Origin: Candidatus Omnitrophota bacterium
GTDB lineage: Bacteria > Omnitrophota > Gorgyraeia > Duberdicusellales > 4484-171
NCBI GenBank assembly: GCA_021735045.1
Contig: JAIPHU010000004.1
Coordinates: forward strand, 2,929 to 66,928
DNA length: 64,000 bases
Reading direction: 5' to 3'
Below, piece by piece: positions 30,636-49,374 of the stretch. Each line of letters begins with the position of its first letter. The stretch's first letter is position 1. The notes under the pieces were generated by a model that was not told where the DNA came from, made no database searches, and was given only the letters and a program-made list of their open reading frames with translations. Position numbers and translations under genes: made by a program.

Positions 30636-32045
30636 TTATTGAGGAACTTCTAACTGGAAGGATAATTTATTGCGTAAGTTATTTAGGTATTCAACTCTTT
30701 TTTCTATTTCTTTGTTGGCCTTGAGATCTTGATAGTAGTTTTCTTTTTCTGCCTTAAACTTATCCGGATCAATATCAGTTTTTTCTAACAATTTTACAAC
30801 ATAAACTCCGTTTTTTCTAACTAACGGTTTGCTATATAGTTGGCCTTCTTCTAGGTCAAAAAACACCAGGTCACTTATCTTTTTGCTTAAACCAAAACCC
30901 GGAATATAATTTAGGTATTTAAACGGCTCTGTTTTAGTATATTCAATTTCTTTTCTTTTGGCATACCCTTTTAACTTATTATTTCCGGTTGCCTTAACCT
31001 CTTTTATAATATTTTCTGCCATTTTTTCGGCTAGACTTTCTGCTTGATCTTTAAGATAAACTTTTTTAACTTCATCCTGAATTTGAGAAAATGCCGGGAC
31101 AGACGCTTCTTGTTCATCTATCTTTTGAAAGACAAACACTTGTTCTTTTATCTTAAACGGAGGACTGGTTTCTCCTTTTTCTAAATTAAAAAGAGGTTGA
31201 TTGATCTGCGGTGCAAATCCAATATCCGCAATTGGTTGGTTTACTCCAAAAAAATCAGTTTCTTCTACATCCAGTTCTTTTAAGTCGTCGAGGTTATTAC
31301 CTGCTTCTAAATAGGTTATCGTATTTTCTATCTCTTTTGAACCTGGATCAAGGCTAATGTATTTTACTTTAATCTTTTTTTCTCGCCGAAAAAGGCTTTT
31401 ATTTTCCTGGTAAAAATCTTTCAGCGTAGAAGAGGGAACATTTGCATCTATCTCCAGCAAATCGTAGGGAATCAGTAGATAAGCTATTTTTGCTTCCTGG
31501 ATTTTTATTTTATAAGCTTTTTTAACCTCTTGGTCGGTAACCTTGATGGTAACATGCTTGTTAAATAGTTTTTCTCTTTTTAAGACACTCCGTACATATT
31601 CTTCAAAGTTACGGGCCAAAAAACGCCGGTTCATTTGTCTACCCAAGTATTTTATAAACTGCTGGTATTTGCTGGGCATAAATTCATTGTCCGGGGAAAA
31701 ATAAGGGATTTTCTGGATATGATCGATAACTTCCTGGTCGCTTACTTTAACACTTTCTTTATCGGCTTGATAAAGCAAAAGATAAAAGTTGGCCGCTAGG
31801 CTGTAGATATCTTCAGTGTTGATCGTCTGTTCTTTATCGGCATTCATTAAAAAATAGATTTGTGCTAGTTCAAGATAGGGCAGGAAATCATCTCTGGTTA
31901 TTGGTTTTTCTTTGATTTTTCCGATTATGTTTTCTTTGTTGCCGCGCATAGCCGAACTGCCCCAGAGAACAAAAGCAGGCACGATAATAACTACCATCGC
32001 CCAAAGAATCAGTTTTTTGTGTTTGTCGGTAAGTCGAATAAACAT
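30636..32045 (-). CDS. PpiD/SurA-like periplasmic chaperone / peptidyl-prolyl isomerase family, N-terminal membrane anchor
   Basis: An N-terminal TM helix followed by a long SurA_N-like domain. This is the only long minus-strand gene in the window. Confidence 0.6.
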   Translation of the reverse strand: MFIRLTDKHKKLILWAMVVIIVPAFVLWGSSAMRGNKENIIGKIKEKPITRDDFLPYLELAQIYFLMNADKEQTINTEDIYSLAANFYLLLYQADKESVKVSDQEVIDHIQKIPYFSPDNEFMPSKYQQFIKYLGRQMNRRFLARNFEEYVRSVLKREKLFNKHVTIKVTDQEVKKAYKIKIQEAKIAYLLIPYDLLEIDANVPSSTLKDFYQENKSLFRREKKIKVKYISLDPGSKEIENTITYLEAGNNLDDLKELDVEETDFFGVNQPIADIGFAPQINQPLFNLEKGETSPPFKIKEQVFVFQKIDEQEASVPAFSQIQDEVKKVYLKDQAESLAEKMAENIIKEVKATGNNKLKGYAKRKEIEYTKTEPFKYLNYIPGFGLSKKISDLVFFDLEEGQLYSKPLVRKNGVYVVKLLEKTDIDPDKFKAEKENYYQDLKANKEIEKRVEYLNNLRNKLSFQLEVPQ

Positions 32046-32173
32046 ATTGTTAATATATTAACTAGAATTTAAAAATCTTCAAGCTTTTTCTGTTACACTG
32101 ATTACACAGATAAAATATAGAAATTGAAAAAATAAGATATATATGTTATAAAAGAGGTGCTGTTTGATAATTC

Positions 32174-32532
32174 GGGGGTGAATGGACTCGACCTAAAAGG
32201 CGATGCGAAAAGGAGCATGCCGAGGATGTGAGTTGCCTGCGATAGTGGTACTTGCAAAAAATTAAATGCAGAAAACACATTTAATACCACTCCTGCTTAC
32301 GCTGTAAGTTAAGGAGGCTCTTCTACTTTTCTGCCTCGGAAAGTATAAGAGTTCATTTATGAGGCTCGGAGTAAGCTTTTGCTTTTCGGGTTTACTCTTA
32401 AAACTAAGGAAAGCTGCTTCCTGGTAAATCCTGCCTTTTGGAGCTATCAGGAAAAAGATAAACAAAAGGCTAAGCATGTAGAATCTTTTTGCTGAAATTT
32501 TAGGGACGCGGGTTCGATTCCCGCCACCTCCA
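32174..32532 (+). ncRNA. ssrA: tmRNA (SsrA)
   Basis: The 5' GGGGGUG pairs with 3' CACCUCC including the G3:U wobble. A GGACUCGAC D-loop analogue follows, and the 3' T-arm is GCGGG-UUCGAUU-CCCGC plus discriminator A. No CCA is encoded. Confidence 0.8.
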
Positions 32533-32576
32533 TTTTTTCGACCTATCCGAAAAATCAGTAAACCCGAAACACATTC

Positions 32577-33320
32577 GGGGGACACAATACTTAATTAGTT
32601 GACACTGTATTAAGGAAAAGTATAATACAGGTATGCCAAGAATAGCACGAATTATAGCCGAAGGCTACCCACATCACATAATACAGAGAGGAAACCGCCG
32701 CCAAAAAGTATTCTTTCAAAATAGAGACTATCAAGAATATCTAAAACTTTTAAGCCAACATTCAGCCAAAAACAACCTTTCTATAGCTGCCTATTGTTTA
32801 ATGCCTAATCATGTCCATATTATAGCTATACCAAACAACAAACAAGGCCTAGCCAAGGCAATAGGAGAAACCCACAGAAATTACACCCGAATGGTAAATT
32901 TCAGAAAAAACTGGCGCGGATACCTTTGGCAAGGAAGGTTTAGTTCATATATTATGGATGAAAAACATTTGTATGCAGCGGTAAAGTATATCCTCAATAA
33001 TCCAACAAATGCAAAGGGAAAAATAACAGAAAATGTCCTAGATTACCGCTGGTCAAGCATTCATCATCATACTGGAAAAGAGAATATACCTTGGCTAAAA
33101 GATGATATATTGCAAAACATGATAGATGATTGGAGTCAATATCTAAATGAAGGCCAAGACAATAAACAGATAGAGCTTTTAAAAAAACATGAACGCACCG
33201 GCCGCCCATTAGGAGATAATAATTTTATAGAAATACTTGAGAAGAAATTAGGAATAAGCTTAAAAAAGAAAAAACCAGGGCCAAAGAAAAGAAGGGGAGA
33301 TAATTAAGTATTGTGTCCCC
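32577..33320 (+). mobile_element. IS200/RayT-like element: Y1 (HUH) transposase gene flanked by perfect 20-bp inverted repeats GGGGACACAATACTTAATTA
   Basis: IR copies at 32577-32596 and 33301-33320 (reverse complement). An internal promoter TTGACA-16-TATAAT ends 7 nt before the ATG at 32633. Confidence 0.7.
32633..33307 (+). CDS. IS200-like / REP-associated Y1 tyrosine transposase
   Basis: MPRIARIIAEGYPHHIIQRGNRRQ..., the HUH motif NHVHIIAIP and a catalytic-Tyr region LDYRWSS. Confidence 0.8.
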   Translation: MPRIARIIAEGYPHHIIQRGNRRQKVFFQNRDYQEYLKLLSQHSAKNNLSIAAYCLMPNHVHIIAIPNNKQGLAKAIGETHRNYTRMVNFRKNWRGYLWQGRFSSYIMDEKHLYAAVKYILNNPTNAKGKITENVLDYRWSSIHHHTGKENIPWLKDDILQNMIDDWSQYLNEGQDNKQIELLKKHERTGRPLGDNNFIEILEKKLGISLKKKKPGPKKRRGDN

Positions 33321-33490
33321 GGAATTATTGATTAAGCCTCTTTTTTATAATTACGTTATTTTTTTTATCTTTTCATCTTTATGCTTCGACATCTCCCATC
33401 CAATTAGATACAATTGATTATTCAAGCGCCCAAAGACAAGGTTATCCGACCGATGAAGAACTTATAAGTTTAGCTACTGAGAAAGGACTA

Positions 33491-33931
33491 TTGCCTGAAT
33501 CTAATTCTGATTTTGATTTGAAAAAGCATGTGAGAAAAGGGAATACCTTAATTATTTGGCTTGTATCTCCCAGGCAATACAAAATAGATTTAGTTGACCA
33601 GCTCAAAGAAATGAATTTTAATAAAGAAGGTGCTACCATAAGTAATCCTTCTGCTTACTATGTAGACCAAATAAATAATGTTATTTATATTTCATTAAAA
33701 AATAATCAAATCAAAGGCTATAACAAAAAAGGGATAGGAGAAATATTTAAAACAATAGCAATACAAGAGGGTAATTTTAATACTAATGATGGCAGAAACG
33801 CTATGGAGATAATGAGAGATTATTGGGGAGAAGAAGAAATTGAATGGTACAAGAAGGCTTATCCGGAGAAGTTTAAGGCTTTGATAGAAATAAATAAAAG
33901 AAAAAGAAATACATACCATGTGCCAAAATAA
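33491..33931 (+). CDS. hypothetical protein (TTG start in ORF track; upstream frame open from 33332)
   Basis: No recognisable domain. The upstream in-frame stretch encodes a hydrophobic signal-peptide-like segment but has no canonical start codon. Confidence 0.4.
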   Translation: MPESNSDFDLKKHVRKGNTLIIWLVSPRQYKIDLVDQLKEMNFNKEGATISNPSAYYVDQINNVIYISLKNNQIKGYNKKGIGEIFKTIAIQEGNFNTNDGRNAMEIMRDYWGEEEIEWYKKAYPEKFKALIEINKRKRNTYHVPK

Positions 33932-34035
33932 GAATAGGAGATCAAACCTTCAAACTTAACTTGATTTTATTGTTAGTGGATATATAATGACACATAGGTT
34001 TATATAAATTAAAAAATATATAAAAAGAAATAAGC

Positions 34036-34413
34036 ATGCCTACAGAGCAAAACAACAAATCTAATAAGATTTCAATTTCATCCTCTAATAAGGAAGTATT
34101 ACATTCAGGAGCTGTTCATACCTTTAGTGCTAACGATCTCCAATTCAAGCTAGAGGGTTTAACTTTCATTTTTAGTTTTATAGATGATGGGGGTAAACAA
34201 CGGATAGAAGGATCTACTTCTTCTGATAAACAGTTGAATATAAAGCTTTTCAATTTCACAAACCCATTAGGAACTGGTTTAATTAAACCGAAAAGGATAG
34301 GTTCGTATAAGCATAGAGAGCTTTTTATTGCTTTCACTGTCTATGCACTTAATAAAAAATCTACCAAGTTGTTTAATTATACTTTTTTTGTAGGAGATGA
34401 AATAGATGACTGA
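34036..34413 (+). CDS. hypothetical protein
   Basis: 125-aa ORF with no recognisable domain. Confidence 0.4.
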   Translation: MPTEQNNKSNKISISSSNKEVLHSGAVHTFSANDLQFKLEGLTFIFSFIDDGGKQRIEGSTSSDKQLNIKLFNFTNPLGTGLIKPKRIGSYKHRELFIAFTVYALNKKSTKLFNYTFFVGDEIDD

Positions 34414-34693
34414 AGAAAAGAAAAAAGAGGAAAAAAGTCAAAAATCTAATGTTACGGAATCAGGATTGACAGGAAAAATTTCTGAAACTATAGGGACGGG
34501 GCCGCATGCTCAGACAGCTATAACATGGCTTGTGATAAAATGGAGTTTTATCGTAGGTTCTGCTTTAACGATTATTATTCTAATAGCTGCAAAGTACGAC
34601 ATATGTGAATTTATATTTGCAAATATCTGGTCTGTGTTTGGGTCAATAATTATGCTTGCCCTAGGTTACTTATTTGGAAAAGGAAAGGAGTAA
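34406..34693 (+). CDS. small two-TM membrane protein, hypothetical
   Basis: 8-nt overlap with the upstream ORF; two hydrophobic helices. Confidence 0.4.
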   Translation: MTEEKKKEEKSQKSNVTESGLTGKISETIGTGPHAQTAITWLVIKWSFIVGSALTIIILIAAKYDICEFIFANIWSVFGSIIMLALGYLFGKGKE

Positions 34694-34875
34694 TGCATAT
34701 ATTTACGGGGAACTATTTTTATGCGATGATCTTTTTATTGGCGAAACATAGTTTATAAAAATAAGTCACCCAATCGAACTTTCTTTAGCATAAACCTTAA
34801 AAACATCCTTCTTTGGCCTTATCTTAGGAGACAAGAATAACATGTCTCCATATTTGACAATACCCACAAAACAAC

Positions 34876-35097
34876 CTACCTCAATCGTTCAGAACCTCTC
34901 ACTTCTCCCCACAAATCGTTGAATTCTTGATAAGCAGAGGAGTCGGCTGGGTTATATTCGAAGATCAGATCACCTGAATAATGCTCGTAGATTAAAATTT
35001 CATCGTTTTCTTTTACAATATCCACGGCTACACTGTTTGTAACCAATTCCCACCTCCGAGGTGGGAATTTTTTTGTTGAGAGCGTTTGGAAAACCAT
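34876..35097 (-). CDS. hypothetical small protein (possible remnant); the ORF track extends it to 35349
   Basis: The C-terminal 50 aa look protein-like. The 5' part overlaps the + strand HEPN gene and would contain the 33-bp palindromic repeat in frame. Confidence 0.25.
   Translation of the reverse strand: MVFQTLSTKKFPPRRWELVTNSVAVDIVKENDEILIYEHYSGDLIFEYNPADSSAYQEFNDLWGEVRGSERLR
35041..35074 (+). repeat. 33-bp palindromic terminator-like repeat, copy 1 (AACCAATTCCCACCTCCGAGGTGGGAATTTTTT)
   Basis: Perfect 10-bp stem TTCCCACCTC/GAGGTGGGAA with a T-run. It is identical to copy 2. Confidence 0.8.
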
Positions 35098-35189
35098 GGT
35101 TTTTTTGCTTTGCCTCAGCTTAAGCATGCGATATAATTTAATTAATGAATATTCCAGAAAATGCGGGTTCCGTATATTAATCACTGTAC

Positions 35190-35858
35190 ATGAAAAAAAC
35201 AAGACAGGAACAAAAATTTGAAAAATATAGAGAATATCTAAATTCGGAAACGCAACTTCTCTGGCAATATATATCATTATATAAACATCTTCATAAAAAA
35301 GTACAGGATAGGCTAGACGAAATAAACATAGCTCCTGCTTTTTTCTCAACAGTTCAGAGTGCCCTCTTTACATGCATTGTTCTATGGATACATAATCTTT
35401 TTTCTGAAGAATCACAACGTGGCCTTCATGATTTTTTAAACTTTATTGAAAGTAATCTTAGCACTTTTAAACTTAGTGAATTAAAAAGGCGAAGAGAATT
35501 TTCTGATAATCATTGGTTCCTAAAAAAAATAACGGAGTTAACAAAATCAGACATAAGTGGACATCGAGCTATGCTTAAATCTATAAAATTATTGAATTCT
35601 ATAAAAACACGACGGGACAAATATCATGCACATTTTGACAAGAAGTATTTTTTCAACAGAGAAAAGATAAATAAAGAAAAACCTATTTTGTGGAAGGATC
35701 TTGATGAAATAAAAGAGCCAATGGAAAAAATTATAAACACTTATTCTGTGGCTTATGACGGAAGCTCATTTAGTATACAATTTGTTAATGCTTATGATGT
35801 TGATAGGATTTTAGATATCTTGCATGAATATAGAGAAAAAAGAAAAAGGCGCACCTAA
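35190..35858 (+). CDS. HEPN-domain protein, Abi-like (putative RNase toxin)
   Basis: A 222-aa alpha-helical protein with a C-terminal R-x4-H motif (TRRDKYHAHFD) characteristic of HEPN. Assigned by pattern, not by alignment. Confidence 0.45.
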   Translation: MKKTRQEQKFEKYREYLNSETQLLWQYISLYKHLHKKVQDRLDEINIAPAFFSTVQSALFTCIVLWIHNLFSEESQRGLHDFLNFIESNLSTFKLSELKRRREFSDNHWFLKKITELTKSDISGHRAMLKSIKLLNSIKTRRDKYHAHFDKKYFFNREKINKEKPILWKDLDEIKEPMEKIINTYSVAYDGSSFSIQFVNAYDVDRILDILHEYREKRKRRT

Positions 35859-36055
35859 TTGTTTTTAAATCATCCACGGCCAACCAACACCACCAGATCC
35901 TTCAGATAGGAAGGCGAATGTTTATAAGATACTGCCGTTGAGTGAAGCGGTAAGAAGGTAGAAGTTAGAGGGGAGAAGTTAGAAAGAATTTAAACAATTG
36001 GAGGTCACAAATTGTGATGTCCAATAGATAAAAGCTAAAAAGGTAATTAAAATTT

Positions 36056-36718
36056 ATGTTGTATCTTTATTTAGATGAAAGCGGTGATTTAGGTTTTGAT
36101 TTTGTTAACAAAAGGCCTTCTAAGTTTTTTACTATATCTATTTTAGTTATAAGAGGCGCAAAGAAAAGAAGACAGGTAGCTAAAAGTGTAGAAAGAACCA
36201 TTAGAAAAAAATTAAATCCGAAAAGCAAGCGGAGGAGAATGGTTCAAGAATTAAAAGGCACATCAACAACGTTAGAAATCAAAGAGTATCTATATAAAAG
36301 AATAAAGAAGATAGATTTTTCTATTTATAGCATAACCTTAAATAAAAGGCGAGCTTATAGCTATTTAATTAAAGATAAATCAAGAATTTATAATTTTATA
36401 GCACGCAGTATTCTAGATAAAGTTGATTTTTCTGATACCAAAAATAGAGTTATTTTGACAATTGATAAGAGCAAGAGTAAGCCTCAGATTAAAGAATTTA
36501 ATGATTATATTTATAACCAATTGGAAGCTAAGATAGATCCTAAAGTTTCTTTATATATAGAGCATGCAGATTCTTGTGCAGATAAATGTTTAAACGTGGC
36601 GGATTTATTTAGCTGGGGAGTTTTTAGAAAACATGAGAGAAAGGATTCTCTATGGTATGATTTATTTGCAGAAAAAGTTGAATTTGATCAAATATATTTG
36701 CTCCAAAATAAAAAATGA
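36056..36718 (+). CDS. DUF3800-family protein
   Basis: The N-terminus MLYLYLDESGD is the hallmark DE motif of DUF3800. Confidence 0.65.
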   Translation: MLYLYLDESGDLGFDFVNKRPSKFFTISILVIRGAKKRRQVAKSVERTIRKKLNPKSKRRRMVQELKGTSTTLEIKEYLYKRIKKIDFSIYSITLNKRRAYSYLIKDKSRIYNFIARSILDKVDFSDTKNRVILTIDKSKSKPQIKEFNDYIYNQLEAKIDPKVSLYIEHADSCADKCLNVADLFSWGVFRKHERKDSLWYDLFAEKVEFDQIYLLQNKK

Positions 36719-36851
36719 GCGGACCCTGCGAGTTGAGCGTTAAAGCTTTTGCCAACCAGATGGAAGGGAACACTTTAACAACTCGCAACGGAATTACCGC
36801 TCAAGTTAAATATACAATATGGGGATGACAAAGTCAAGTTATTTTTGAACT

Positions 36852-37358
36852 ATGAAACCCGGCGACATTCTACTATTCAAAGCAGAGCGTGATTTTGTTT
36901 CTCGGCTGATTGCTTGGGGGACTGGAAGCAAATATTCCCACGTGGCAATTTGTGTATCTCCGAAGATGCATCTAGCAATTGAGGCGATTGCCAGAGGCGG
37001 GATCAGAGCTAGGGATATTAGAAAGATCCCCAGAGATTATGATCTTTATAGGGTAAAGGAAGATTATTCTTATAATCTAGATGGTGTTATTTCTTATCTA
37101 GTTGATAAGCTCAACGAAAGATATGATTATCCCGGTGTTCTCTGGTTAGGATTTATAAAGTTACTTGCAAAGACCGGCCTTCCGTTTAAAGTTACAGCTA
37201 ACAATTGGCAGAAGCGGCGAGATCATTTTTGTTCAGAGCTTTGCTCTGAAGCATTCTTCTATGGCGGAGGGCTAGATATTGTGCCAGAACAACCAGCAGC
37301 GAACATAACTTCCCCGGCCGATATTGCGAATAGCTCAGTCATAGAAACTGTACAATAA
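36852..37358 (+). CDS. permuted papain-like amidase, YaeF/YiiX (peptidase C92 / DUF830) family
   Basis: GDILLFK...YSHVAI (His) precedes FCSELCSE (Cys), the permuted His-before-Cys order of the C92 family. Confidence 0.55.
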   Translation: MKPGDILLFKAERDFVSRLIAWGTGSKYSHVAICVSPKMHLAIEAIARGGIRARDIRKIPRDYDLYRVKEDYSYNLDGVISYLVDKLNERYDYPGVLWLGFIKLLAKTGLPFKVTANNWQKRRDHFCSELCSEAFFYGGGLDIVPEQPAANITSPADIANSSVIETVQ

Positions 37359-37389
37359 CCAATTCCCACCTCCGAGGTGGGAATTTTTT
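37357..37389 (+). repeat. 33-bp palindromic terminator-like repeat, copy 2
   Basis: Identical to 35041-35073. It overlaps the TAA stop of the amidase gene. Confidence 0.8.
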
Positions 37390-37567
37390 GCCCCAATCCA
37401 AAGCAGGTGGTATAATTATAAAAACAACAACAGACACCTTTTTAATAAAGTAAATCCTGATAAAAGTCATCTGCGGAAAGAAACAGAAGAGGGGCCTTCT
37501 CGCTGAAAGTTAAGTAGTACGTGTCACGGATTTTTTTAAACAAGTTTATAAGAAGGAGGAAGAGTTA

Positions 37568-38494
37568 ATGGATAGAGCTAAAAGTTACACTATTATATCT
37601 GCATTATTTCTTGGTATAGCAAATATTTTATACTGGTTTATTCTTCCGCTAATCTTTGCGTTGAAATACCCTGGTGGTCTACGAGGACCGATTATGCGTT
37701 GTATGGTTTCGCCTTCGTTAGAAATAAAAGTAATTATTTATATCATATCAGGGTTGGTGATTTTAGGGATGATCTTGTTTATTACCGGTATTATAATTTC
37801 TTTTACGAAGAAAAACTGGAGTAAACTGTTAATAATTATTACTACGATTTTAGTATTTATGTCTATTCCTTTTATGTTTCATTTAGTAAAATTTTTTGTT
37901 GGTTCAGTAAAAAATTTTCGATATTCAATCAGTTCTTATATTGGTCCCGCATCGATTTCCAGAGATATGTCATCATGGAAGATGTTTAAAAGCCAGAGCG
38001 ATAAGTATAAAATTCAATATCCACCAGAGATGGTAAAAACTCGATTTTATTACCGTAATCCTGAAGAGACCAAAGGTTTAAAGAAGGGTCGCCCTTATGA
38101 TTTCACATCATTCGTTTTAAAGGAGAATAATTATTCTGGAAAAAAGTATTACCCGTTTGAAGTTTATATAGGCGTACATCTAAATGAGGAAGGCTTATCG
38201 CCTTTAGCATTTGAAATAAACAAAGTTAAACAGAACCAAAGAGAAATAAGTAATTACCAGGTGCTGTCAAAATCAAAAATTAACATTGCTGGAGTAGAAG
38301 GTGTAGTAGATCATACATTAGTAAAAAAAGGAAATGATGCCAAACGATTTGTAAGGTATTTTATTCCTTACAAGAATGAGATGATAATAATTGTTGGTTT
38401 AATTGGCAAGGAAAAAGAATATATCCCCGAATACCATAAGACCTTTATGGACATGCTTTCGACTTTTAAATTTATGCCAAAAAAAAGAAAATAG
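37568..38494 (+). CDS. hypothetical membrane protein (4 N-terminal TM helices + soluble C-terminal domain)
   Basis: AAGGAGG ribosome-binding site; hydrophobic N-terminal third; no recognisable domain. Confidence 0.5.
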   Translation: MDRAKSYTIISALFLGIANILYWFILPLIFALKYPGGLRGPIMRCMVSPSLEIKVIIYIISGLVILGMILFITGIIISFTKKNWSKLLIIITTILVFMSIPFMFHLVKFFVGSVKNFRYSISSYIGPASISRDMSSWKMFKSQSDKYKIQYPPEMVKTRFYYRNPEETKGLKKGRPYDFTSFVLKENNYSGKKYYPFEVYIGVHLNEEGLSPLAFEINKVKQNQREISNYQVLSKSKINIAGVEGVVDHTLVKKGNDAKRFVRYFIPYKNEMIIIVGLIGKEKEYIPEYHKTFMDMLSTFKFMPKKRK

Positions 38495-38636
38495 GGGCAG
38501 CAATCCAATTAACTCCTTACACAATCCTGCCTTTTTGTTATAATACTGCTTAGATAAAACAAGGACAAGATAAAACAGAAACAGACATCTTTTATATCGC
38601 AGAGCGCAAAGCGCTTAGCGCAGAGCAAATTAGAAA

Positions 38637-40556
38637 ATGATTAGGTTAAATAATATTTCTAAAAGTTACGGAGTAAGGACCCTGTTTGACGGGATCAACC
38701 TTACAATCAATCGGGGCCTCAAGTGTGGCCTAGTGGGGCCAAATGGTGCCGGAAAAAGTACTCTCTTTTCGCTGATTCTTGGCTCACAAGAACCAACTTC
38801 CGGGCAGGTGCAGATAAAAAAGCAGGTCTCGATTGGATACTTGCCTCAGGAGATGTCTTTTGAGTCTAACGATTCGGTCTTATCCGAAGCTACCAAAGGG
38901 GATCACTCGATGCGGCGGATGGTTAAGGAGAAGAAAAAGCTGGAAGATGCCGGTAAGGCTGGCTCAAAAAAGTATGGCGACATATTACATAAGTTAGAGT
39001 TTAAGGGGTATTTTCAGTTAGAGCATAAAGCGGAGAAGATCCTCACCGGCTTAGGCTTTACCGAAAAGATGCTGGCACAACCGGTAAACGAACTTTCCGG
39101 CGGCTGGGGAATGAGGATCTATTTAGCCCGGCTTTTAACTTCCCATTACGATATCTTGCTTCTTGATGAACCGATGAACCATCTTGATTTAGCGGCGGCG
39201 TTATGGTTTAAAGACTATCTGTTAAAATTTAACGGAACCTTTATTATGATCTCCCACGATAAGGATTTCTTAGAACAAGTAACCGATCATATCTTAGTAT
39301 TGGAAAATGAAACGATCACTAAAGTTAAAGGTAACTATCAGAATTATGAGAAGATACAAAGCCAAAAAGCAAGCCATCTGTTAAAGCAAGCAGCAGAACA
39401 AGCCAAGAAACGCAAACAACTGCAAGATTTTATCGCTCGTTTTCACGGCCAGCCGACTAAAGCTGCCCAGGTCCGGGCAAAGAGAAAGATGATTGAGAAG
39501 ATGGAAAAGATTGACCTGCCTTTCCGACGCAGGGAAAGTGTGAGAAACTTCCAATTTCCCGGTACTAAAAATAGCGGCTATCAAGTTATTCGTTTAGAAG
39601 ATGCCTCTAAATCCTATGGCGATCTAAAAGTATACCAAAATCTTGATTTTGAGATTGTCCGTCAGGAAAAAGCAGTCTTAGCCGGTATTAATGGGGCCGG
39701 CAAGTCTACTTTGTTAAAAATATTAGCCGGAGAAATTGATCTTGATTCTGGCCGGCGCCGGGTAGGCAGTAATGTCGGTATCGGCTATTTTTCCCAGAGG
39801 AGAATGGAGATGCTCAGCGCCTCAAATACAGTCTTTGATGAAGTCTATTCTGCTGCGGAGGGAAATTGTTCGGAACAAAGAATCAGGACAATCTTAAGTT
39901 TATTCTTGTTTACCGGCGATGATGTTAGCAAAAAGGTAGAAATTTTATCCGGCGGAGAAAAGAGCCGTCTTATTTTAGCCAAACTATTGATTAATCCACC
40001 TAATTTTCTGTTACTGGATGAGCCGACCATTCATTTAGATATTGATGCTACCGAGGCTTTGATCCGCGCCCTTAAGGTTTATCAGGGAACTTTAGTCTTT
40101 ATTAGCCACGATATCCATTTTGTCCGTTCGGTAGCTAATGTCGTTTATGAGGTTCGCAATGGTAAAATCAGAAAATTTCCCGGCAATTTTGATTACTATT
40201 GGCAAAGAGCCAAGGAGAAAGGTTTTGTGGAAGACGCAAATTACAAACAGCCGAAACCGGCTAAAAAAGTAAAGTCAGCTCGAGATATTGCGAAAGAAGA
40301 AAAAAAATTAGAAAGGCAAAAAATTAAACAGCAGCAAAAGCAGAATGCGGCTCTTTCAAAAAAGATAAAAGCTTTACGCAAAGAAAAAGAAAAAATAGAA
40401 ATCGACCGGAATGTAAAAGCACGAATTTTATCTAACCCCCGTAGTTACCATAATAAGAAGATGGTTATTGATTATGGAGCTAAACTGAAAGTAATCGAGC
40501 AAAGGCTTAAAGCCATAGATGCTGAAATAGCGAAGCTGGAAGGTTCTTTTCTGTAG
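38637..40556 (+). CDS. ABC-F family ATPase (tandem ABC domains, no TMD; Uup/YheS/EttA-like translation factor)
   Basis: Two Walker A motifs GLVGPNGAGKST and LAGINGAGKST, two LSGG signatures and a C-terminal coiled coil. Confidence 0.85.
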   Translation: MIRLNNISKSYGVRTLFDGINLTINRGLKCGLVGPNGAGKSTLFSLILGSQEPTSGQVQIKKQVSIGYLPQEMSFESNDSVLSEATKGDHSMRRMVKEKKKLEDAGKAGSKKYGDILHKLEFKGYFQLEHKAEKILTGLGFTEKMLAQPVNELSGGWGMRIYLARLLTSHYDILLLDEPMNHLDLAAALWFKDYLLKFNGTFIMISHDKDFLEQVTDHILVLENETITKVKGNYQNYEKIQSQKASHLLKQAAEQAKKRKQLQDFIARFHGQPTKAAQVRAKRKMIEKMEKIDLPFRRRESVRNFQFPGTKNSGYQVIRLEDASKSYGDLKVYQNLDFEIVRQEKAVLAGINGAGKSTLLKILAGEIDLDSGRRRVGSNVGIGYFSQRRMEMLSASNTVFDEVYSAAEGNCSEQRIRTILSLFLFTGDDVSKKVEILSGGEKSRLILAKLLINPPNFLLLDEPTIHLDIDATEALIRALKVYQGTLVFISHDIHFVRSVANVVYEVRNGKIRKFPGNFDYYWQRAKEKGFVEDANYKQPKPAKKVKSARDIAKEEKKLERQKIKQQQKQNAALSKKIKALRKEKEKIEIDRNVKARILSNPRSYHNKKMVIDYGAKLKVIEQRLKAIDAEIAKLEGSFL

Positions 40557-40632
40557 TGAGCTTGCCAAAATATCTTTTAATTAATAGTTGTTTTGGTATA
40601 ATTAAGCAAAAGAATAGATTATAAAAAAACCT

Positions 40633-41490
40633 ATGAAAATAAGTCAAATACTAAACAGTACCGAGCGTGGTGTGGCTTTTGAATTTTTCCCTCCCCGAAG
40701 CCAGAAATCAGCAGCAGCACTTAAAAACACCCTGAAAGCATTAAAAAAATATAACCCCTTATATGTTTCGATGACCTGCGGAGCCGGCGGGAGTAGTTAT
40801 GAAACTACCCAGGATGCGGTAAATATTTTACTGGAGGAGAAAGATTTAACGGTAATGCCCCATCTTACTTGTCTGAGCACCGAACCTTCCGCAGTTCGCG
40901 AGATACTTCAAAATTATAAAGATTTAGGAATTGCCAATATTATGGCTTTGCGGGGTGATATCTTACCCGAATCTGAGGAAGCTAATCTAGCCGGTGAGTT
41001 TAAATTCGCTAAAGATCTAATCAAGCTAATTAAAGAGGATGGCCATTTTGATATCGGGGCTGCGGTTTATCCCGAGGGCCATATTGAAATGAGATCCTTA
41101 GATCAAGATCTAAAATATACCAAAGAAAAGATAGATTGCGGAGTCGATTTTGCCGTAACCCAGATGTTTTTTGATAATCAATATTATTATCAGTTTTTAG
41201 AAAGAGCCCGCAGTAACGGAATCAATATCCCGATTTTACCGGGAATTTTACCGCTAACCAATATCGCAAAAGTCAAAGAATTTGCTTCAATTTGTCGAGC
41301 TACTATCCCTGCACAGATCGAAGAGAAATTAAGTCGTTTTTCAAAAAACCCTAAAGACATGCAAAAGGCGGGAATCGAGTTAACGATTAAACAATGCAAA
41401 GATTTGATTGACCATGGCCACCAGCGTTTGCACTTTTTTACATTGAATAAAGCCAGCGTAATGCAAGAGATAATCGATGCCTTATTTTAA
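40633..41490 (+). CDS. metF: 5,10-methylenetetrahydrofolate reductase
   Basis: FEFFPPRSQ N-terminal motif; TIM-barrel MTHFR pattern. Confidence 0.85.
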   Translation: MKISQILNSTERGVAFEFFPPRSQKSAAALKNTLKALKKYNPLYVSMTCGAGGSSYETTQDAVNILLEEKDLTVMPHLTCLSTEPSAVREILQNYKDLGIANIMALRGDILPESEEANLAGEFKFAKDLIKLIKEDGHFDIGAAVYPEGHIEMRSLDQDLKYTKEKIDCGVDFAVTQMFFDNQYYYQFLERARSNGINIPILPGILPLTNIAKVKEFASICRATIPAQIEEKLSRFSKNPKDMQKAGIELTIKQCKDLIDHGHQRLHFFTLNKASVMQEIIDALF

Positions 41491-41725
41491 GAATATCATG
41501 AAAAAAACCGCCTTATTTATTTTAATTGTTTTTTTGCTAGCAGGATGCGGAAGACGACGGGAATCGCTGCGCTACGATCGGAGAGAAACTGCCTTGATAG
41601 CAAAAGAGCAGAGGATAAATAGCCAGACAGAAATCCTGATCGACGGAGCAATTATCGGCGGCGGCCTGGTGCTCTTAATTAGCCTAATCGGCTTTGCCGT
41701 CTTCTACTCTCTAGGAAAAAAATGA
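41477..41725 (+). CDS. small lipoprotein, hypothetical
   Basis: Lipobox LLAGC and a C-terminal TM helix. Confidence 0.45.
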   Translation: MPYFKNIMKKTALFILIVFLLAGCGRRRESLRYDRRETALIAKEQRINSQTEILIDGAIIGGGLVLLISLIGFAVFYSLGKK

Positions 41726-42228
41726 AAAAGAAAGTAACAGTTAATGACAAGATGCAACGGGGTTATAGCTATTATTTGACTGAACCAATAGGAAAGAACT
41801 TTGATCCTGAATTTCAGCCAGAACTTACACCAAAAGAAATGTTAGAGTTGGGGGTTTTTGGGGGTAAATACATGACCGATTGCCAGAAAGAGTTTCCCAG
41901 CTCTTGGTATAAAAAAGCTAAACTCTGTGCCGAAGAACACGATCCACAGCTAAACTATTTTGGCGTAAATGCCAGCCAGCCGCTTGCTGTATGGCGCAAA
42001 AAAGGCTGGATTTATAAAGATGACCCGCGGGGGTGGTTTCAGTGGTATTGCCGTTATTATATGGGAAGGCGGATTCAGGAAGAAGACAGGCGCCAGATAA
42101 AAAGACAGAAAGCAATTAAAAGACACATCGCCCAAATTAAAAAGAACTGTAAAAAAGGTGACCTTAACTGCCGGCCCAAACAGCGCCAAGCAGTCTTAAA
42201 CTGGGCCTATGATAGCAGGAAACTATAA
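41722..42228 (+). CDS. conserved hypothetical protein (WFQWYCRYYMGRR motif)
   Basis: 168-aa ORF overlapping the upstream stop. I cannot assign a family. Confidence 0.45.
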   Translation: MKKKVTVNDKMQRGYSYYLTEPIGKNFDPEFQPELTPKEMLELGVFGGKYMTDCQKEFPSSWYKKAKLCAEEHDPQLNYFGVNASQPLAVWRKKGWIYKDDPRGWFQWYCRYYMGRRIQEEDRRQIKRQKAIKRHIAQIKKNCKKGDLNCRPKQRQAVLNWAYDSRKL

Positions 42229-42297
42229 GTTATAACAAAAGAGGCTGATGATTTGCCTGTATCGAGATAATATCGGCACAGAATTAGGGGGAAAACG

Positions 42298-43041
42298 ATG
42301 AAAAATAAATGGAGATGGCAGTTGTTTTTAGGTTTAGGACTAATTTTTTTATCGGCTTTTGTTTATTTTATCCATTATCTTATTTTTAGGGATATGCATC
42401 ACATTTTTATCTACCTGATCGGAGATATTGGGTTTGTTTTTCTAGAAGTTCTACTGGTGACGTTAATCATCCACCAGCTGCTTGTTCAGCAGGAAAAACA
42501 AATGTTAATTAAAAAGCTGAATATGGTGATTGGTGTTTTTTTTAGTGAAGTAGGCACAAGTTTATTAAAACAAATTGCCGTTTTTGATAAAAAAGTTAAA
42601 GATATTTCTGGCCACTTAGGAGTTAACAGTGATTGGACTAACAAAGAGTTTAGTAGTCTTAAAAAATATTTATACCGCTATGATAGTGATATTGCTATAA
42701 GCAGAGCTGGTTTAGAACAATTACGAGATACTTTAGTTGCAAAACGCACTTTTTTAGTTAACTTGTTAGAAAATCCTAATTTATTAGAACATGATTCCTT
42801 TACAGACACTCTTTGGGCTGTTTTCCATTTAGCAGAAGAGCTATCTAAGAGAGAGGGCTTTGCTAACTTACCCCAGGCAGATTTAGAGCATTTAGCTAAA
42901 GATATCAAGAGATCTTATCAAAACTTAATCGGCGAATGGATTGATTACATCCAACACTTAAAACAAAGTTATCCTTATCTTTTCTCTTTAGCAATCCGCA
43001 CCAATCCTTTTAACGAATCCGCCTCAGTGGTAATTAATTGA
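42298..43041 (+). CDS. membrane-anchored hypothetical protein
   Basis: Two N-terminal TM helices followed by a helical soluble domain. Confidence 0.5.
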   Translation: MKNKWRWQLFLGLGLIFLSAFVYFIHYLIFRDMHHIFIYLIGDIGFVFLEVLLVTLIIHQLLVQQEKQMLIKKLNMVIGVFFSEVGTSLLKQIAVFDKKVKDISGHLGVNSDWTNKEFSSLKKYLYRYDSDIAISRAGLEQLRDTLVAKRTFLVNLLENPNLLEHDSFTDTLWAVFHLAEELSKREGFANLPQADLEHLAKDIKRSYQNLIGEWIDYIQHLKQSYPYLFSLAIRTNPFNESASVVIN

Positions 43042-43169
43042 AACAAAATTTGTTTCCCTAAGTTGCATAACTTGACCCTTAAAACTGCCGGCGTTATAAT
43101 AGTTGTAAATTATTTTTTTTAGCTCAAGAAGAAAGGGGAAAGTTTAGCAGGAAAAGTTGTTTTAATTAT

Positions 43170-43859
43170 ATGAAAAAATTAAAGTTCAACATCTTAAAGA
43201 AAATACTTGGGTTTAAAACAAGCGAACAAAGTTTTGCGTTTCTGATCCTTATTCTCATCACATTCATATTAATTGAACCAATCGTTAAAGATTTAGGTTT
43301 TTTGGCAAATATCATCACCAGCATTGTTATTTCCTTTGTTCCTTTTGCAATTATCCGTGCTGCCGGAAAAAATAAAAAAGAACGCAGAAGGGCTTTTATG
43401 ATCGGTATTATTTTTTTGATCCTTGTTTGGCTGAATGTTTTGGTAGAAGCCCACTTTATGAGAATTCTTTTCTCGCTTTATTTAATAGTGTTTTATGTTT
43501 ATCCTTTAAGAATAATAGTTAGACATCTTCTTACTTCAAGAAAAATAACTTTAAACACGATTTATGCTGCGATTGCCGGTTATCTTCTGATTGGGTTGGC
43601 ATGGGCTTCAATTTATACTGCGATAAATATTTTAAAACCGGGATCTTTTTTAAATATTGAAGGGGTAAATGACAGTATCTATTACAGCTTCTTAACTCTT
43701 ACTACTTTAGGCTATGGAGATATAGTACCCCTTACAGCTTTGGCTAAAAGAGTAGCAGTTTTAGAAAGTATGGTCGGCGTTCTTTATAATGCGATAGTTA
43801 TTGCTTTTATAGTGGGAATATATATAAGCGAAAGGCTTGCAAAAAAAGAAAGCGAATAA
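43170..43859 (+). CDS. potassium channel family protein
   Basis: Selectivity filter TLTTLGYGDIVP between TM helices. Confidence 0.7.
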   Translation: MKKLKFNILKKILGFKTSEQSFAFLILILITFILIEPIVKDLGFLANIITSIVISFVPFAIIRAAGKNKKERRRAFMIGIIFLILVWLNVLVEAHFMRILFSLYLIVFYVYPLRIIVRHLLTSRKITLNTIYAAIAGYLLIGLAWASIYTAINILKPGSFLNIEGVNDSIYYSFLTLTTLGYGDIVPLTALAKRVAVLESMVGVLYNAIVIAFIVGIYISERLAKKESE

Positions 43860-43884
43860 TTAAAAAAGGGGAGGGTAAACAGTT

Positions 43885-44139
43885 ATGGATTTTACCATTG
43901 ATCCAATTAGTCTGGTTAACTTAATACTTTGCGTGATCATTGTAATTTTAGCTTCGCTTCGCTTTAGAAAAAACAAAAACACAACTGCCTTTTTTATCGG
44001 ATTTGCCTTTGGCTTATTTGGTATCTCCCACCTTTTGATCTTTTTTGGGTTAAAGTCGTCCTTGGAAAGTTTTTTGATTACAATCAGGATAATTGCCTAT
44101 CTTTCAGTTATTGCGGCGGTTTATAAAATTGCGAAGTAA
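43885..44139 (+). CDS. small membrane protein, hypothetical
   Basis: Two or three hydrophobic helices. Confidence 0.4.
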   Translation: MDFTIDPISLVNLILCVIIVILASLRFRKNKNTTAFFIGFAFGLFGISHLLIFFGLKSSLESFLITIRIIAYLSVIAAVYKIAK

Positions 44140-44458
44140 TACTTTATGAGCAAAAGAAGACAGCAATCTAAAAAATCAGATAAACGATAGCCGTCCAGAA
44201 AAAAACTCAATAAATTTAGATAAAATCACTGTTAAAGCAGAAGCCGCGGGAGCAGATTACGCCCAATTTGTTAAACACAACCTGGATGAAATGTCCTGGC
44301 TTTATCCGTTTGACTTAACTGGCAACTAACCAAGGAGTTGCAAATCTAATGCAAGCTCGTTACAATACACTAAGCCTTGTTGAACTAATTGATTTTGTAA
44401 AATTAATTAAAAAATAAAATAGAAGCTGAGCTTAATAAGGTAGAGAGTGAGGTAAAGT

Positions 44459-44974
44459 ATGAGTGATAAATTTTCTTTAGATAAATATAAAAACAAAAGA
44501 AATTTTAAAGAAAGCCCGGAGCCAAAAGCAGAAAAAGCAGCAAGAAAAAATAAGCAGCCGTTATTTGTAGTCCAAAAACATGCGGCTAGCCGGCTTCATT
44601 ATGATTTTCGCTTAGAGATTAAAGGAGTGCTTAAATCTTGGGCGGTACCGAAAGGCCCCTCCCTTAATCCTGCCGACAAACGCCTGGCAGTTGAGACCGA
44701 GGATCATCCGCTTGCTTATGCAAACTTTGAAGGAACAATTCCTAAGGGCCATTACGGAGCTGGTACGGTAGTGATTTGGGATAAAGGCACTTATCAAAAC
44801 ATAAAAAAGGATAAAACGGGAAAGGAAATAAAAATTGAAAAAAGTTATCAAAAAGGGCAAATGGAATTTAAACTTCAAGGTAAAAAATTAAAAGGTAATT
44901 TTGCTTTAATTAGATTTAAGCCAAAAAAACAATGGCTTTTAATTAAAATGAAAAATAAAAATATATCTTCTTGA
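44459..44974 (+). CDS. stand-alone LigD-type 3'-phosphoesterase (PE) domain protein
   Basis: LFVVQKHAASRLHYDFRLE...SWAVPKGPS...EDHPLAY..FEGTIPKGHYGAGTV..WDKGTY matches the LigD N-terminal PE domain. Confidence 0.75.
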   Translation: MSDKFSLDKYKNKRNFKESPEPKAEKAARKNKQPLFVVQKHAASRLHYDFRLEIKGVLKSWAVPKGPSLNPADKRLAVETEDHPLAYANFEGTIPKGHYGAGTVVIWDKGTYQNIKKDKTGKEIKIEKSYQKGQMEFKLQGKKLKGNFALIRFKPKKQWLLIKMKNKNISS

Positions 44975-44995
44975 ACTACTTAGCCTATAATCTAG

Positions 44996-45034
44996 TAAAG
45001 TAGTCTTATAAAATTATAGGGCTACTTTTTTTTA
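44996..45034. terminator. bidirectional hairpin terminator between convergent genes
   Basis: An imperfect 14-bp stem centred on TATAAAATTATA followed by T8. Confidence 0.55.
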
Positions 45035-45049
45035 TTAACTTACTTTCGA

Positions 45050-45322
45050 TTAGTTTTTTGGGGAGAACTTTTTTTGGCGGTAGTAAAGGATTACTGCTAT
45101 CACCAGGCTGAATAAAGCTAAATTTACAATATTAAAGGTTTTCCAAACCAAGTCGCTGGATTTAAAAGCTTCCGGGGCCATCAAGATAAAGCAAATCCAA
45201 ACTCCTAAAGCCCAATGTAGGCTGATATCAGCAGATGATCTACGTTTTATCATTCTGGCAATTAGAGGGATATTCCAAAAAGGTAAAGCTATGGCTGCAA
45301 TTAAAGCTATTTTTTCTGTCAT
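45050..45322 (-). CDS. SemiSWEET / PQ-loop-like small membrane transporter (tentative)
   Basis: A 90-aa three-TM protein with IPLIARMIKRRSSADISL resembling the SemiSWEET TM1 K-x-x-S-x-x-D-x-SL region. Confidence 0.4.
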   Translation of the reverse strand: MTEKIALIAAIALPFWNIPLIARMIKRRSSADISLHWALGVWICFILMAPEAFKSSDLVWKTFNIVNLALFSLVIAVILYYRQKKFSPKN

Positions 45323-45461
45323 TTTTTCTCCTTTAATTTAAGAAATAATATACCATAAATTATTGTAAAGTTAAAACTTATTTTTAACTTTGACCTTACA
45401 AAACCCAAGAGCTATAATACTTTAAATTCATCTAAAACAAAAATAATTAAGGAGGCAAAAA

Positions 45462-45626
45462 TGGATAAATTTAAAACAACCTTACAAGTTTCAAGATCGA
45501 AAGAAAATCCTGATATCTTTATTTTTACAATCTCTACACCGACCTTACGGACTCAATTTAAACTTCCTAAAAAAACTGTAAATCAACTCCGGGTTGATCT
45601 AGAAAGGCTTATTGTGGGAAAATAAT
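45462..45626 (+). CDS. very small ORF (54 aa) with strong ribosome-binding site, hypothetical
   Basis: AAGGAGG-N6-ATG; below the ORF-track size cut-off. Confidence 0.25.
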
Positions 45627-45723
45627 AAATTTACTTTTTAAAATAGATAGTTTGAAAATAAATCAAGCTGTGGTAGAATATTTTTTCGTATAAATAAAAT
45701 TAATATTATTTAGGGAGGTGGTG

Positions 45724-46038
45724 ATGGCAAAGAAAAAAGATTTTTTCCAAGAAGTGAAGACAAAACATTGGCCTAAGGCAAGAAAAGAGCTTGAAAAGGG
45801 TATTGATAATGCTAAAAAAATGCTTTCAGCCGGAGAAAAACAGATAAGACAATTTTCTGAAAAAAGCGCTGAACGAACTCGAAAGATCTCTCTTCAAGTA
45901 AGGAAAGAAAAACTAATCTATGAACTAGGTAAAACTATTGCCCGTACAGCTAAAAACAAATGGGGCACAACTAAAAAAGTAGATAAGTTGCGCAAAGAAA
46001 TTAAAGGTTTAGAAAAAGAAATAAAAAAGATTAAATAA
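45724..46038 (+). CDS. lysine-rich coiled-coil protein, hypothetical
   Basis: AGGGAGG ribosome-binding site and an ATG at 45724. The ORF track starts it at GTG 45718. Confidence 0.45.
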   Translation: MAKKKDFFQEVKTKHWPKARKELEKGIDNAKKMLSAGEKQIRQFSEKSAERTRKISLQVRKEKLIYELGKTIARTAKNKWGTTKKVDKLRKEIKGLEKEIKKIK

Positions 46039-46060
46039 CTAAATATAAAGGAGATTTTCT

Positions 46061-46378
46061 ATGGCAGTTGAAGTAACTAATGCAAATTTTGATAGTGAAG
46101 TTTTACAATCAGAAATTCCGGTCTTAATTGATTTTTGGGCTCCTTGGTGTGGGCCATGTAAGGCAGTAGAGCCGGTTTTAGAAGAAATTGAAAATGAAGT
46201 AGGCGAAAAAATAAAAATTTGTAGAATTAATTTAGATGAAGCACCGGAAATTGCAACAAAGTATTCAATAATGAGTATTCCTACCTTAATGGTCGTAAAG
46301 GATGGAAATATTATGGATACCAAAGTTGGTGCTTTACCTAAAGATAGTCTGATGAGCATTATTCAGCCTTATCTTTAG
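46061..46378 (+). CDS. trxA: thioredoxin
   Basis: WAPWCGPCK active site in a 105-aa product. Confidence 0.9.
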   Translation: MAVEVTNANFDSEVLQSEIPVLIDFWAPWCGPCKAVEPVLEEIENEVGEKIKICRINLDEAPEIATKYSIMSIPTLMVVKDGNIMDTKVGALPKDSLMSIIQPYL

Positions 46379-46452
46379 ATAAGTTTTTGACAACAAAGAC
46401 CTTGCTTTTCTAGAGATAAGTTGCTATAATTTTATGCTTTTTTGAATAGAAT

Positions 46453-49372: not shown

Positions 49373-49374
49373 AA

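Follow-up and report, generated by a model that had tools for sequence, protein, structure and literature searches.

Transfer RNA (tRNA) and transfer-messenger RNA (tmRNA) genes are regarded as general integration sites (Williams 2002, as cited in PMC10250203). In Dehalococcoides, islands are found in tandem at the tmRNA gene ssrA, where they carry 20-bp repeats of ssrA and encode the serine recombinase DsiB adjoining attL (PMC3146451). In Pseudomonas aeruginosa, ssrA is a flank of the core defence hotspot cDHS2, and its sister hotspot cDHS1 is described as not clearly assignable to a single type of mobile element (PMC10250203). The locus described here is found in a stretch of 64,000 nt from Candidatus Omnitrophota (assembly GCA_021735045.1, contig JAIPHU010000004.1, positions 2,929-66,928, forward strand), referred to below as the window, and comprises the DNA directly 3' of ssrA, positions 32533-38571. 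This DNA is probably accessory and occupies a long-lived hotspot of variability that starts exactly at the 3' end of ssrA, its content being a patchwork rather than one element. The hotspot is of an ordinary kind, the novelty lying in its occurrence in the understudied phylum Omnitrophota; the defence-island hotspots of Escherichia coli are reportedly a similar system.

As in the tmRNA islands of Dehalococcoides, accessory DNA extends from the 3' end of a single-copy ssrA, synteny is broken, the guanine-plus-cytosine content (GC) is mildly below that of the core, and the content is strain-variable and layered, suggesting serial events. Unlike those islands, the window has no integrase or integration module, the breakpoints are at or after the CCA end and not in the T-loop, and the units are cassettes on the scale of single genes instead of islands of 10-30 kb. 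The resemblance to cDHS1 and cDHS2 lies in the fixed flanking markers, the genome-specific cargo and the lack of a consistent mobile-element hallmark. It may extend, judging by Pfam names, to families of defence or toxin type, namely HEPN/AbiU2, ParE, NYN, restriction-modification (RM), GmrSD, PLD, MazG-like proteins and a Schlafen (SLFN)-like helicase. On the other hand, the P. aeruginosa hotspots differ from the present one in that the latter is represented by metagenome-assembled genomes (MAGs) of Omnitrophota only, its islands, of 6-9 kb, are far smaller, a conserved C92-like gene stands inside them as an anchor, and none of the cargo of the window is recognised by PADLOC.

The relatives used for comparison were reached via homologues of the SurA-like gene adjoining ssrA. 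Most are genus-level loci of Candidatus Omnitrophota (L001, L053, L060 and others), with core proteins 85-97% identical to those of the window, and L070 is a more distant one, with a SurA 37% identical. The region is complete from ssrA to the C92-like gene in the window, L053 and L060, and L001 holds part of a fourth island; together with the types represented by L073 and L081, six versions of the region contain the C92-like gene. The SurA-like protein of the window is identical to one from GCA_021735365.1, and the window and MAG JAWOBO01 have ABC-F proteins with 93% identity. Exact-protein look-ups with the ABC-F and C92-like proteins of the window found no record, and scans of metagenome contigs with the SurA-like protein and with a 39-nt pattern of the ssrA 3' end gave no match.

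The left boundary and the turnover of cargo

The genes to the left of the region (UvrB, PanK, GroES/EL, PAS-HD, PFOR, ferredoxin, SurA and ssrA) are found in the same order in all genus-level relatives, and this synteny (UvrB, PanK, GroES/EL, PFOR, SurA, ssrA) is kept as far as the relative with 37% SurA identity. In L053, L058, L059, L060 and L061, nucleotide alignment with the window breaks off precisely at 32532, the base that directly precedes the CCA. Six distinct sequences follow ssrA, diverging within 0-8 nt of the CCA. These comparisons bear out a preliminary description, made from the letters of the window, according to which non-core DNA lies directly 3' of ssrA. The same description had named an identical gene order next to ssrA in distant relatives as evidence to the contrary, and the island is not conserved there: L070 has only a PilZ gene.

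Beyond the boundary, the cargo differs from one relative to the next. The island of L053 consists of a ParE toxin pair, NYN, TPR and NucS_C/DUF4268 genes and five hypothetical genes, followed by the C92-like gene, a gene for 267 amino acids and ABC-F. That of L060 holds SIMPL, MazG-like and SLFN-type helicase/S24 genes and two hypothetical genes, and then the C92-like gene and MsrAB. In L001, PEBP, a gene for 249 amino acids, DUF3800 with its RNA and the C92-like gene are followed by Fic, M48, LemA, a further Fic and ABC-F, and the L073 and L081 types carry RM systems, GmrSD/HNH, PLD, Trypsin_2 and DUF4238. Reciprocal tblastn of the window island and those of L053, L060 and L001 finds no shared cargo other than C92 and DUF3800. 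The DUF3800 gene is common to the window and L001 only among these four, the segments 36023-37359 of the window and 2618-3954 of L001 being 94.3% identical. The HEPN/AbiU2 gene of the window has not been seen in the islands of the relatives, and the two-gene module formed by the DUF6864 gene and the gene for a hydrophobic protein is missing from all of them. Layering is visible in L053, where a cassette of 0.9 kb with ParE lies directly after ssrA; L060 has none at this place, as expected of a nested insertion.

Base composition was proposed in the preliminary description as a check on the foreign nature of the island, and the deviation turns out to be only mild. The segment 32533-36850 has a GC of 0.325 compared with 0.354 +/- 0.018 (3.3% tail), and its tetranucleotide distance lies in the 1.7% tail. 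The codon distances of the island genes are high, but the genes are short. Within the region, the HEPN and DUF3800 genes have a GC of 0.28-0.30, as against 0.41-0.43 for the C92-like and ABC-F genes.

Assemblies of this genus tend to stop at the junction. Fourteen contigs (L052, L055-L059 and L062-L069), of which five measure 29-37 kb, terminate within ssrA or at most ~110 nt past it, and they come from NCBI MAGs, JGI metagenomes and Logan assemblies. These breaks are attributed to the strain-variable junction, which disrupts metagenome assembly.

Several features in and around the left boundary are recorded here in their own right. The ssrA gene of the window does not encode the 3' CCA (CCTCCA being followed directly by TTTTTT), and five relatives (L053, L058, L059, L060 and L067) encode an end in CCTCCACCA. 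An encoded CCA is also missing from all three tRNA genes of the window, and is present in the tRNA-Gln gene beside the island in L074 and L082. The SurA-like chaperone (30636-32045, minus strand) is fast-evolving, with 67-70% identity to its relatives compared with mostly 84-97% for the neighbouring proteins (66-79% for PanK). A conserved unit of ~140 nt occurs after ssrA in L060 (reverse strand, 454-592 nt from base 9760 of the locus) and after the ParE cassette in L053 (1363-1506), and is missing from the window. It includes a promoter-like TTGACC...TATATT, two hairpins and a terminator and has no match in Rfam, an organisation that suggests a small RNA gene.

The C92-like anchor and the layered right boundary

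The C92-like gene is present in 6/6 versions of the region, with 88-95% amino-acid identity in L001, L053, L060 and the L073 and L081 types. Since it occurs in every version, and since its GC of 0.43 matches that of ABC-F, it is considered an anchor and not cargo. The gene had earlier been grouped with the HEPN and DUF3800 genes in a single cassette, a grouping that has to be given up, as it is found in all six versions regardless of the cargo. The protein is called C92-like only, because it scores under the cut-offs of Pfam (Table 1) and NCBIfam (16.4 vs 279 bits). In its sequence, a His precedes the Cys (SHVAI ... FCSEL), an order that we take to be the permuted papain-like (YaeF/YiiX) layout.

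This gene splits the region into two slots, slot A (32533-36850) and slot B (37425-38571). The membrane-protein gene that occupies slot B in the window is replaced elsewhere by the gene for 267 amino acids (L053) or by the Fic, M48, LemA and Fic genes (L001).

The right boundary is layered and depends on the distance of the relative. Among close relatives it lies at 38571 or 38626, nucleotide identity being 90.8% to L053 from 38572 onwards and 91.4% to L001 from 38626 onwards. ABC-F borders the region in the window, L053 and L001, with 93-94% identity of the protein in the latter two, and does not do so in L060. In the more distant L070, the order is SurA, ssrA, PilZ and then homologues of window 45718-53050 with their order kept. 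Synteny resumes at 45718 with an open reading frame (ORF) of 106 amino acids, thioredoxin, tRNA-Met, RNase H, YebC, RuvC and RuvA. Because of this, the whole of 32533-45717 (13.2 kb), including ABC-F and metF, stands at the site that in L070 measures ~0.8 kb (8749-9532) and holds the PilZ gene only. This comparison places the putative ancestral right boundary near 45717.

The preliminary description had suggested looking in related genomes for ssrA directly next to the ABC-F and metF genes. An ssrA-ABC-F adjacency of this kind was never seen in any genome examined. Moreover, ARAGORN detects no tmRNA within up to 10 kb upstream in 34 Omnitrophota loci with ABC-F orthologues, so that the linkage between ssrA and ABC-F is confined to the genus of the window.

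The promoter and leader of ABC-F (38498-38626) consist of CTTACA-17-TATAAT, then AAAACAGAAACAGACA and further on the palindromic CGCAGAGCGCAAAGCGCTTAGCGCAGAGC. This sequence recurs two to three times in L001 (621-676, 3978-4015 and 8643-8766), before unrelated PEBP and Fic genes.

Gene remnants and duplicated modules

Two genes of slot A are preserved only in part. The orphan gene that follows the transposase unit has a frame open from 33332 without a start codon, its start and ~9 codons being lost at the edge of that unit. Its homologues have 192-193 amino acids and a hydrophobic, signal-like N-terminus, and three of them (P0035-P0037) align over 93-95% of the frame once it is extended. At the nucleotide level, L081 is homologous from 33356 on, ~30 nt away from the right arm of the unit's inverted repeat (33325). 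The 5' end was removed by the RayT unit or by the event that brought it. The second case is a PLD/HTH_36 gene, of which only the C-terminus is found by tblastn, with 79-80% identity (E ~1e-7) to the PLD proteins of L073 and L081, where the gene is intact. In the window, this remnant is the scar of a replaced gene. The order orphan-PLD-C92 is also present in the L073 and L081 types, filled there with other cassettes.

Every insert that could be delimited has a duplicated module at both sides. In the window, a 34-nt hairpin brackets 2316 bp and 22-nt copies of AAAACAGAAACAGACAYCTTTT bracket the membrane-protein gene. In L001, leader copies of ~47-65 nt bracket an insert of 4.6 kb, and in L053 PLD stumps bracket 1.6 kb.

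The 75-nt fragment from the 3' end of PLD lies at cassette junctions once in the window and twice in L053 (3898-3972 and 5496-5576), where the copies are direct and stand around three genes. The repeat at 35837-35945 was initially considered a structured RNA, a candidate that was discarded: its fold is no better than that of shuffled sequences (z -0.1), and it proved to be a coding remnant.

The orphan-PLD-C92 scaffold lies 3' of a tRNA-Gln(UUG) gene in the types represented by L074 (1-4750) and L082 (50-125). In L074, a large serine recombinase (Resolvase, Recombinase and Zn ribbon domains) encoded on the reverse strand adjoins the end of this tRNA gene. The 4.7-kb module carrying this recombinase has an 18-nt inverted repeat, GGGCAACCATTCCTCTCG, at its bounds, and the tRNA 3' end is part of that repeat.

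The 34-nt repeats and alternative origins of the region

The 34-nt direct repeat TAACCAATTCCCACCTCCGAGGTGGGAATTTTTT is exact and occurs at 35040-35073 (copy 1) and 37356-37389 (copy 2), its only copies in the 64 kb, with 0 expected by chance. Each copy has an 11-bp stem and a 3-nt loop followed by a T-run (TTTTTT), and is a predicted intrinsic (Rho-independent) terminator. Copy 2 opens with the stop codon of the C92-like gene and is kept after this gene in L053 (33/34) and L060; it is therefore taken as the native C92 terminator, and copy 1 as a recent duplicate or conversion product. In L001, an insertion separates the C92 stop codon from the hairpin, which lies 4.6 kb away. Copy 1 was also considered as the trace of a decayed second C92 gene, a reading abandoned because tblastn and blastn found no C92 remnant upstream of it.

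The preliminary description, which had noticed the repeats as 33-bp units, proposed that they might be degenerate att-like scars derived from the tmRNA 3' end and marking serial insertions. They do have ATTC and CCACCTCC in common with the ssrA end, they bracket the 2316-bp segment as exact direct repeats, and ~7 copies of the hairpin are found in the genus, all within variable regions and none in the conserved flanks examined. However, the alignment with the tmRNA 3' end (12 matches and a 3-nt gap) has a score of 9, which is also reached by 0.76% of shuffled repeats and by 49/7514 window 34-mers (0.65%), so that the likeness is not significant. Besides, when up to 3 mismatches are allowed, a 22-nt query from the ssrA 3' end has no match in the window other than ssrA, and the last 60 nt of ssrA give chance 8-15-mers only (blastn-short) in the four islands, those of L053, L060 and L001 included. 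The 11-bp stem with its T-run is that of a textbook intrinsic terminator, conserved as such after the C92 stop codon in the relatives, and the boundaries of their islands do not lie at hairpin copies, the left one always being ssrA. An origin of the repeats as recombination sites is thus hardly credible, and they are better described as copies of the C92 terminator. The main rival to a patchwork is of a broader kind: the region could be one or several tandem islands inserted at ssrA by an integrase and since decayed, with integrase and attR lost through deletions and RayT activity. The boundary exactly at the ssrA 3' end, with the encoded CCA replaced in the window, fits this history, as does the position of the L053 cassette directly after ssrA relative to L060. 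The serine recombinase beside the tRNA end in L074 also resembles the ssrA islands of Dehalococcoides, with DsiB next to attL (PMC3146451). Nevertheless, an integrase is found in 0/3 of the islands complete from ssrA to the C92-like gene (window, L053 and L060). In agreement with the earlier statement that the window island has none, no recombinase domain was detected by Pfam or NCBIfam in any ORF of at least 50 amino acids within 32533-38636, and the L074 recombinase as tblastn query finds no remnant in the window. A copy of the ssrA 3' end is seen in no island even at relaxed stringency, in contrast to the 20-bp repeats kept by the Dehalococcoides islands. Finally, in L082 unrelated genes replace the recombinase module at the same tRNA-Gln site, which assigns the recombinase to the 4.7-kb sub-element and not to the whole island. 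A decayed integrase-mediated island is consequently regarded as rather unlikely. As for an artefact, a chimeric metagenome assembly joined at the conserved ssrA could be suspected from the many assemblies that break in or at this gene and from the NCBI MAG contig L052, which matches the window at 100% identity in all 11 genes compared and along 31900-32359, where L052 ends. Yet a variable segment also connects ssrA with the C92-like gene in assemblies obtained independently from other samples (L053 and L054 with six similar contigs; L060 and L061). In L053 this linkage reaches ABC-F, and the order in the window is likewise ssrA, C92, ABC-F, which makes an artefact most improbable.

A patchwork of accessory DNA at an ssrA-anchored hotspot is therefore the preferred interpretation. 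The C92-like gene with its terminator and the ABC-F promoter/leader form a fixed scaffold between two slots, in which recombination between short modules held in common, intergenic or 3'-terminal, may add or replace cassettes, similarly to the core defence hotspots of P. aeruginosa. Candidate modules are the terminator hairpin, the promoter/leader, the PLD 3' fragment and the REP-like sequence; exchange could also take place through the conserved flanks, with no resident site-specific integrase being involved. The cargo would serve mainly for defence against phages or mobile elements and for addiction. Directly observed are the boundaries, the differing content of the relatives, the anchor gene kept in all versions, the gene remnants and the lack of an integrase and of att duplications. 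Several points nonetheless weigh against this interpretation. The comparison sequences are metagenome contigs or MAGs throughout, many of them short, and recombination at short modules is what we infer, and only infer, as the mechanism of exchange. Some of the bracketing repeats are possibly reused regulatory sequence. After the C92-like gene, the right flank varies, with MsrAB in L060 and other genes in the L073 and L081 types. PADLOC gives no significant match to known defence systems for the cargo proteins of the window, so that the label "defence" is a putative one, drawn from family names and from the neighbouring genes in relatives. In addition, two strain types have the scaffold 3' of tRNA-Gln, and in one of these a large serine recombinase is encoded next to the tRNA, which keeps an integrase-driven origin alive. 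A more far-reaching proposal would make the hotspot an integrase-independent platform for cassette exchange anchored at ssrA, integron-like in function, with the border modules as dedicated recombination sites on which the resident RayT-like HUH enzyme might act in the form of single-stranded hairpins. In its favour, the delimited inserts are bracketed by modules, and the hairpin and REP-like copies were seen only in variable regions. As in integron arrays and clusters of attC sites lacking integron-integrases (CALINs), the cassettes are small, mostly of promoterless size and in one orientation, and short conserved sequences are found repeatedly at the 3' ends of cassettes and on both sides of inserts. 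Unlike in those arrays, there is no IntI and several cassettes have their own promoters. By inspection, the recurring elements are a 25-nt perfect hairpin, promoter/leader copies and a coding stump, and not attC sites of 57-141 nt with R''/L''-L'/R'. Such a platform is a speculative and quite unlikely explanation.

Genes and RNA elements of the window island

The features of the island and its flanks are collected in Table 1. Searches with Pfam and NCBIfam confirm the inventory made earlier from the letters, consisting of a RayT-like element, HEPN, DUF3800 and membrane-protein genes, and then ABC-F and metF. The orphan ORFs at 33491-34693 had been said to lack recognisable domains; this is true of 33491-33931 and untrue of 34036-34413, which matches DUF6864. 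The minus-strand ORF had been called doubtful, a judgement that stands, given that it overlaps the start of the HEPN gene and reads through the hairpin. It has neither a domain nor a homologue in any locus, and is regarded as either spurious or a remnant beyond recognition.

Table 1. Features of the ssrA-anchored region and its flanks, in window coordinates
Feature	Position	Strand	Basis and remarks
tmRNA gene (ssrA), left anchor of the hotspot	32174..32532	+	ARAGORN; Rfam RF00023, 182 bits
RayT-like Y1 (HUH) transposase unit	32573..33325	+	Inverted repeat, promoter and gene
25-nt inverted repeat of the RayT unit	32573-32597 and 33301-33325		Arms 96% complementary
RayT promoter TTGACA-16-TATAAT	32599-32626	+	Promoter search; 12/12 consensus
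RayT-like Y1 transposase gene	32633..33307	+	Pfam Y1_Tnp, 54.9 bits, above gathering score
Orphan gene, 5'-truncated	33332..33931 (listed ORF 33491-33931)	+	No domain
DUF6864 gene	34036..34413	+	Pfam, 104.9 bits
Gene for 95-amino-acid hydrophobic protein	34406..34693	+	ORF; overlaps DUF6864 gene
Doubtful ORF	34876..35349	-	No domain; no homologue in any locus
Copy 1 of 34-nt predicted terminator hairpin	35040..35073	+	Exact duplicate of C92 terminator including TAA; fold -15.8 kcal/mol, z -3.5
HEPN/AbiU2 gene, abortive-infection-type cargo	35190..35858	+	Pfam HEPN_AbiU2, 62.1 bits; GC 0.30
PLD/HTH_36 remnant, last 25 codons (IIRD.PTPPDFSDRKANVYKMLPL)	35869..35943	+	tblastn vs L073 and L081 PLD
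DUF3800 gene, accessory	36056..36718	+	Pfam, 37.5 bits
DUF3800-V RNA motif	36712..36808	-	Rfam RF02964, 68.6 bits vs gathering 37.4; full-length match 1-96
Promoter-like site of DUF3800-V RNA	36809..36837	-	Promoter search
C92-like (permuted papain-like) gene, conserved anchor	36852..37358	+	Pfam Peptidase_C92, 21.8 bits, below gathering 27
Native C92 terminator (37356-37389) and conserved promoter module TTGCCC-17-TATAAT	37356..37424	+	Conservation after C92
Imperfect 22-nt direct repeats AAAACAGAAACAGACAYCTTTT around slot B	37421-37442 and 38572-38593		
Slot B	37425..38571	+	308-amino-acid membrane-protein gene, REP-like fragment 37487-37537, promoter module 38498-38553
Membrane-protein gene, 308 amino acids	37568..38494	+	ORF; hydrophobic, no domain
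Conserved leader and ABC-F, right anchor among close relatives	38572..40556	+	Nucleotide alignment
ABC-F gene	from 38637	+	Pfam
Older layer: metF, small ORFs, ion channel, LigD_N phosphoesterase	40557..45717	+	Pfam; L070 comparison
MTHFR/metF gene	from 40633	+	Pfam

The RayT-like protein has an HVH motif and candidate Tyr residues readable in its sequence. Its best match in NCBIfam is REP_Tyr_transpos (REP-associated tyrosine transposase) with 57.7 bits against a cut-off of 80, IS200 reaching 19 bits. Like the described REP/RayT systems, it is a Y1 HUH transposase that fits the RayT model better than IS200, has 25-nt inverted flanks, and is accompanied by repeat fragments that recur in the hotspot (window, L001, L053 and L060). 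Unlike them, it stays below the equivalog cut-off of NCBIfam, a handful of repeat copies is seen, and the arms are not obviously palindromic REPs. Partial copies of the repeat are located at 37487-37537 in the window, 4042-4060 and 8546-8568 in L001, 6603-6617 in L053 and 857-870 in L060, the search having covered 64 kb of the genome of the window. The promoter of the unit (in the region 32599-32639) ends merely 6 nt ahead of the ATG, implying a leaderless or near-leaderless transcript.

DUF3800 proteins have an RNase H-like fold (PMC10910872), and the literature associates them with CRISPR loci and with 11 RNA motifs of obscure role (PMC5737381, PMC10910872). A location on the opposite strand has been described for DUF3800-I and for the related drum and skipping-rope motifs (Weinberg et al. 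2017, PMC5737381). The DUF3800-V RNA of the window is likewise on the opposite strand, and the pair is a regular member of the set of DUF3800 genes with DUF3800 RNA motifs, with no difference from those described (PMC5737381). The RNA and the DUF3800 gene are convergent, with the RNA overlapping the stop codon of the gene. Its predicted fold (-36.4 kcal/mol, z -3.4) has a closing stem followed by a U-run, and the 141-nt intergenic segment that holds it is identical in L001 at 140/141 positions, compared with ~94% for the flanking genes. An Rfam search of the island at E <= 1 returned only the tmRNA and DUF3800-V. Scans of viral contigs for the DUF3800 and C92-like proteins found no relatives, and thus no sign of carriage by phages.

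Implications

Two practical consequences arise from these comparisons. The recurrent break at ssrA would conceal the island in most MAGs of the genus. For annotation, when a palindromic repeat has an 8-mer in common with a tRNA-like acceptor stem, a terminator is a likelier explanation than an att site. Beyond this, the locus documents in Omnitrophota the ssrA-anchored type of hotspot known from Proteobacteria and Dehalococcoides, with cargo putatively rich in defence genes and here without an integrase or att sites. It offers a good site for mining uncharacterised candidate defence genes, among them the DUF6864 pair, DUF3800 with its small RNA, and the orphan secreted protein.

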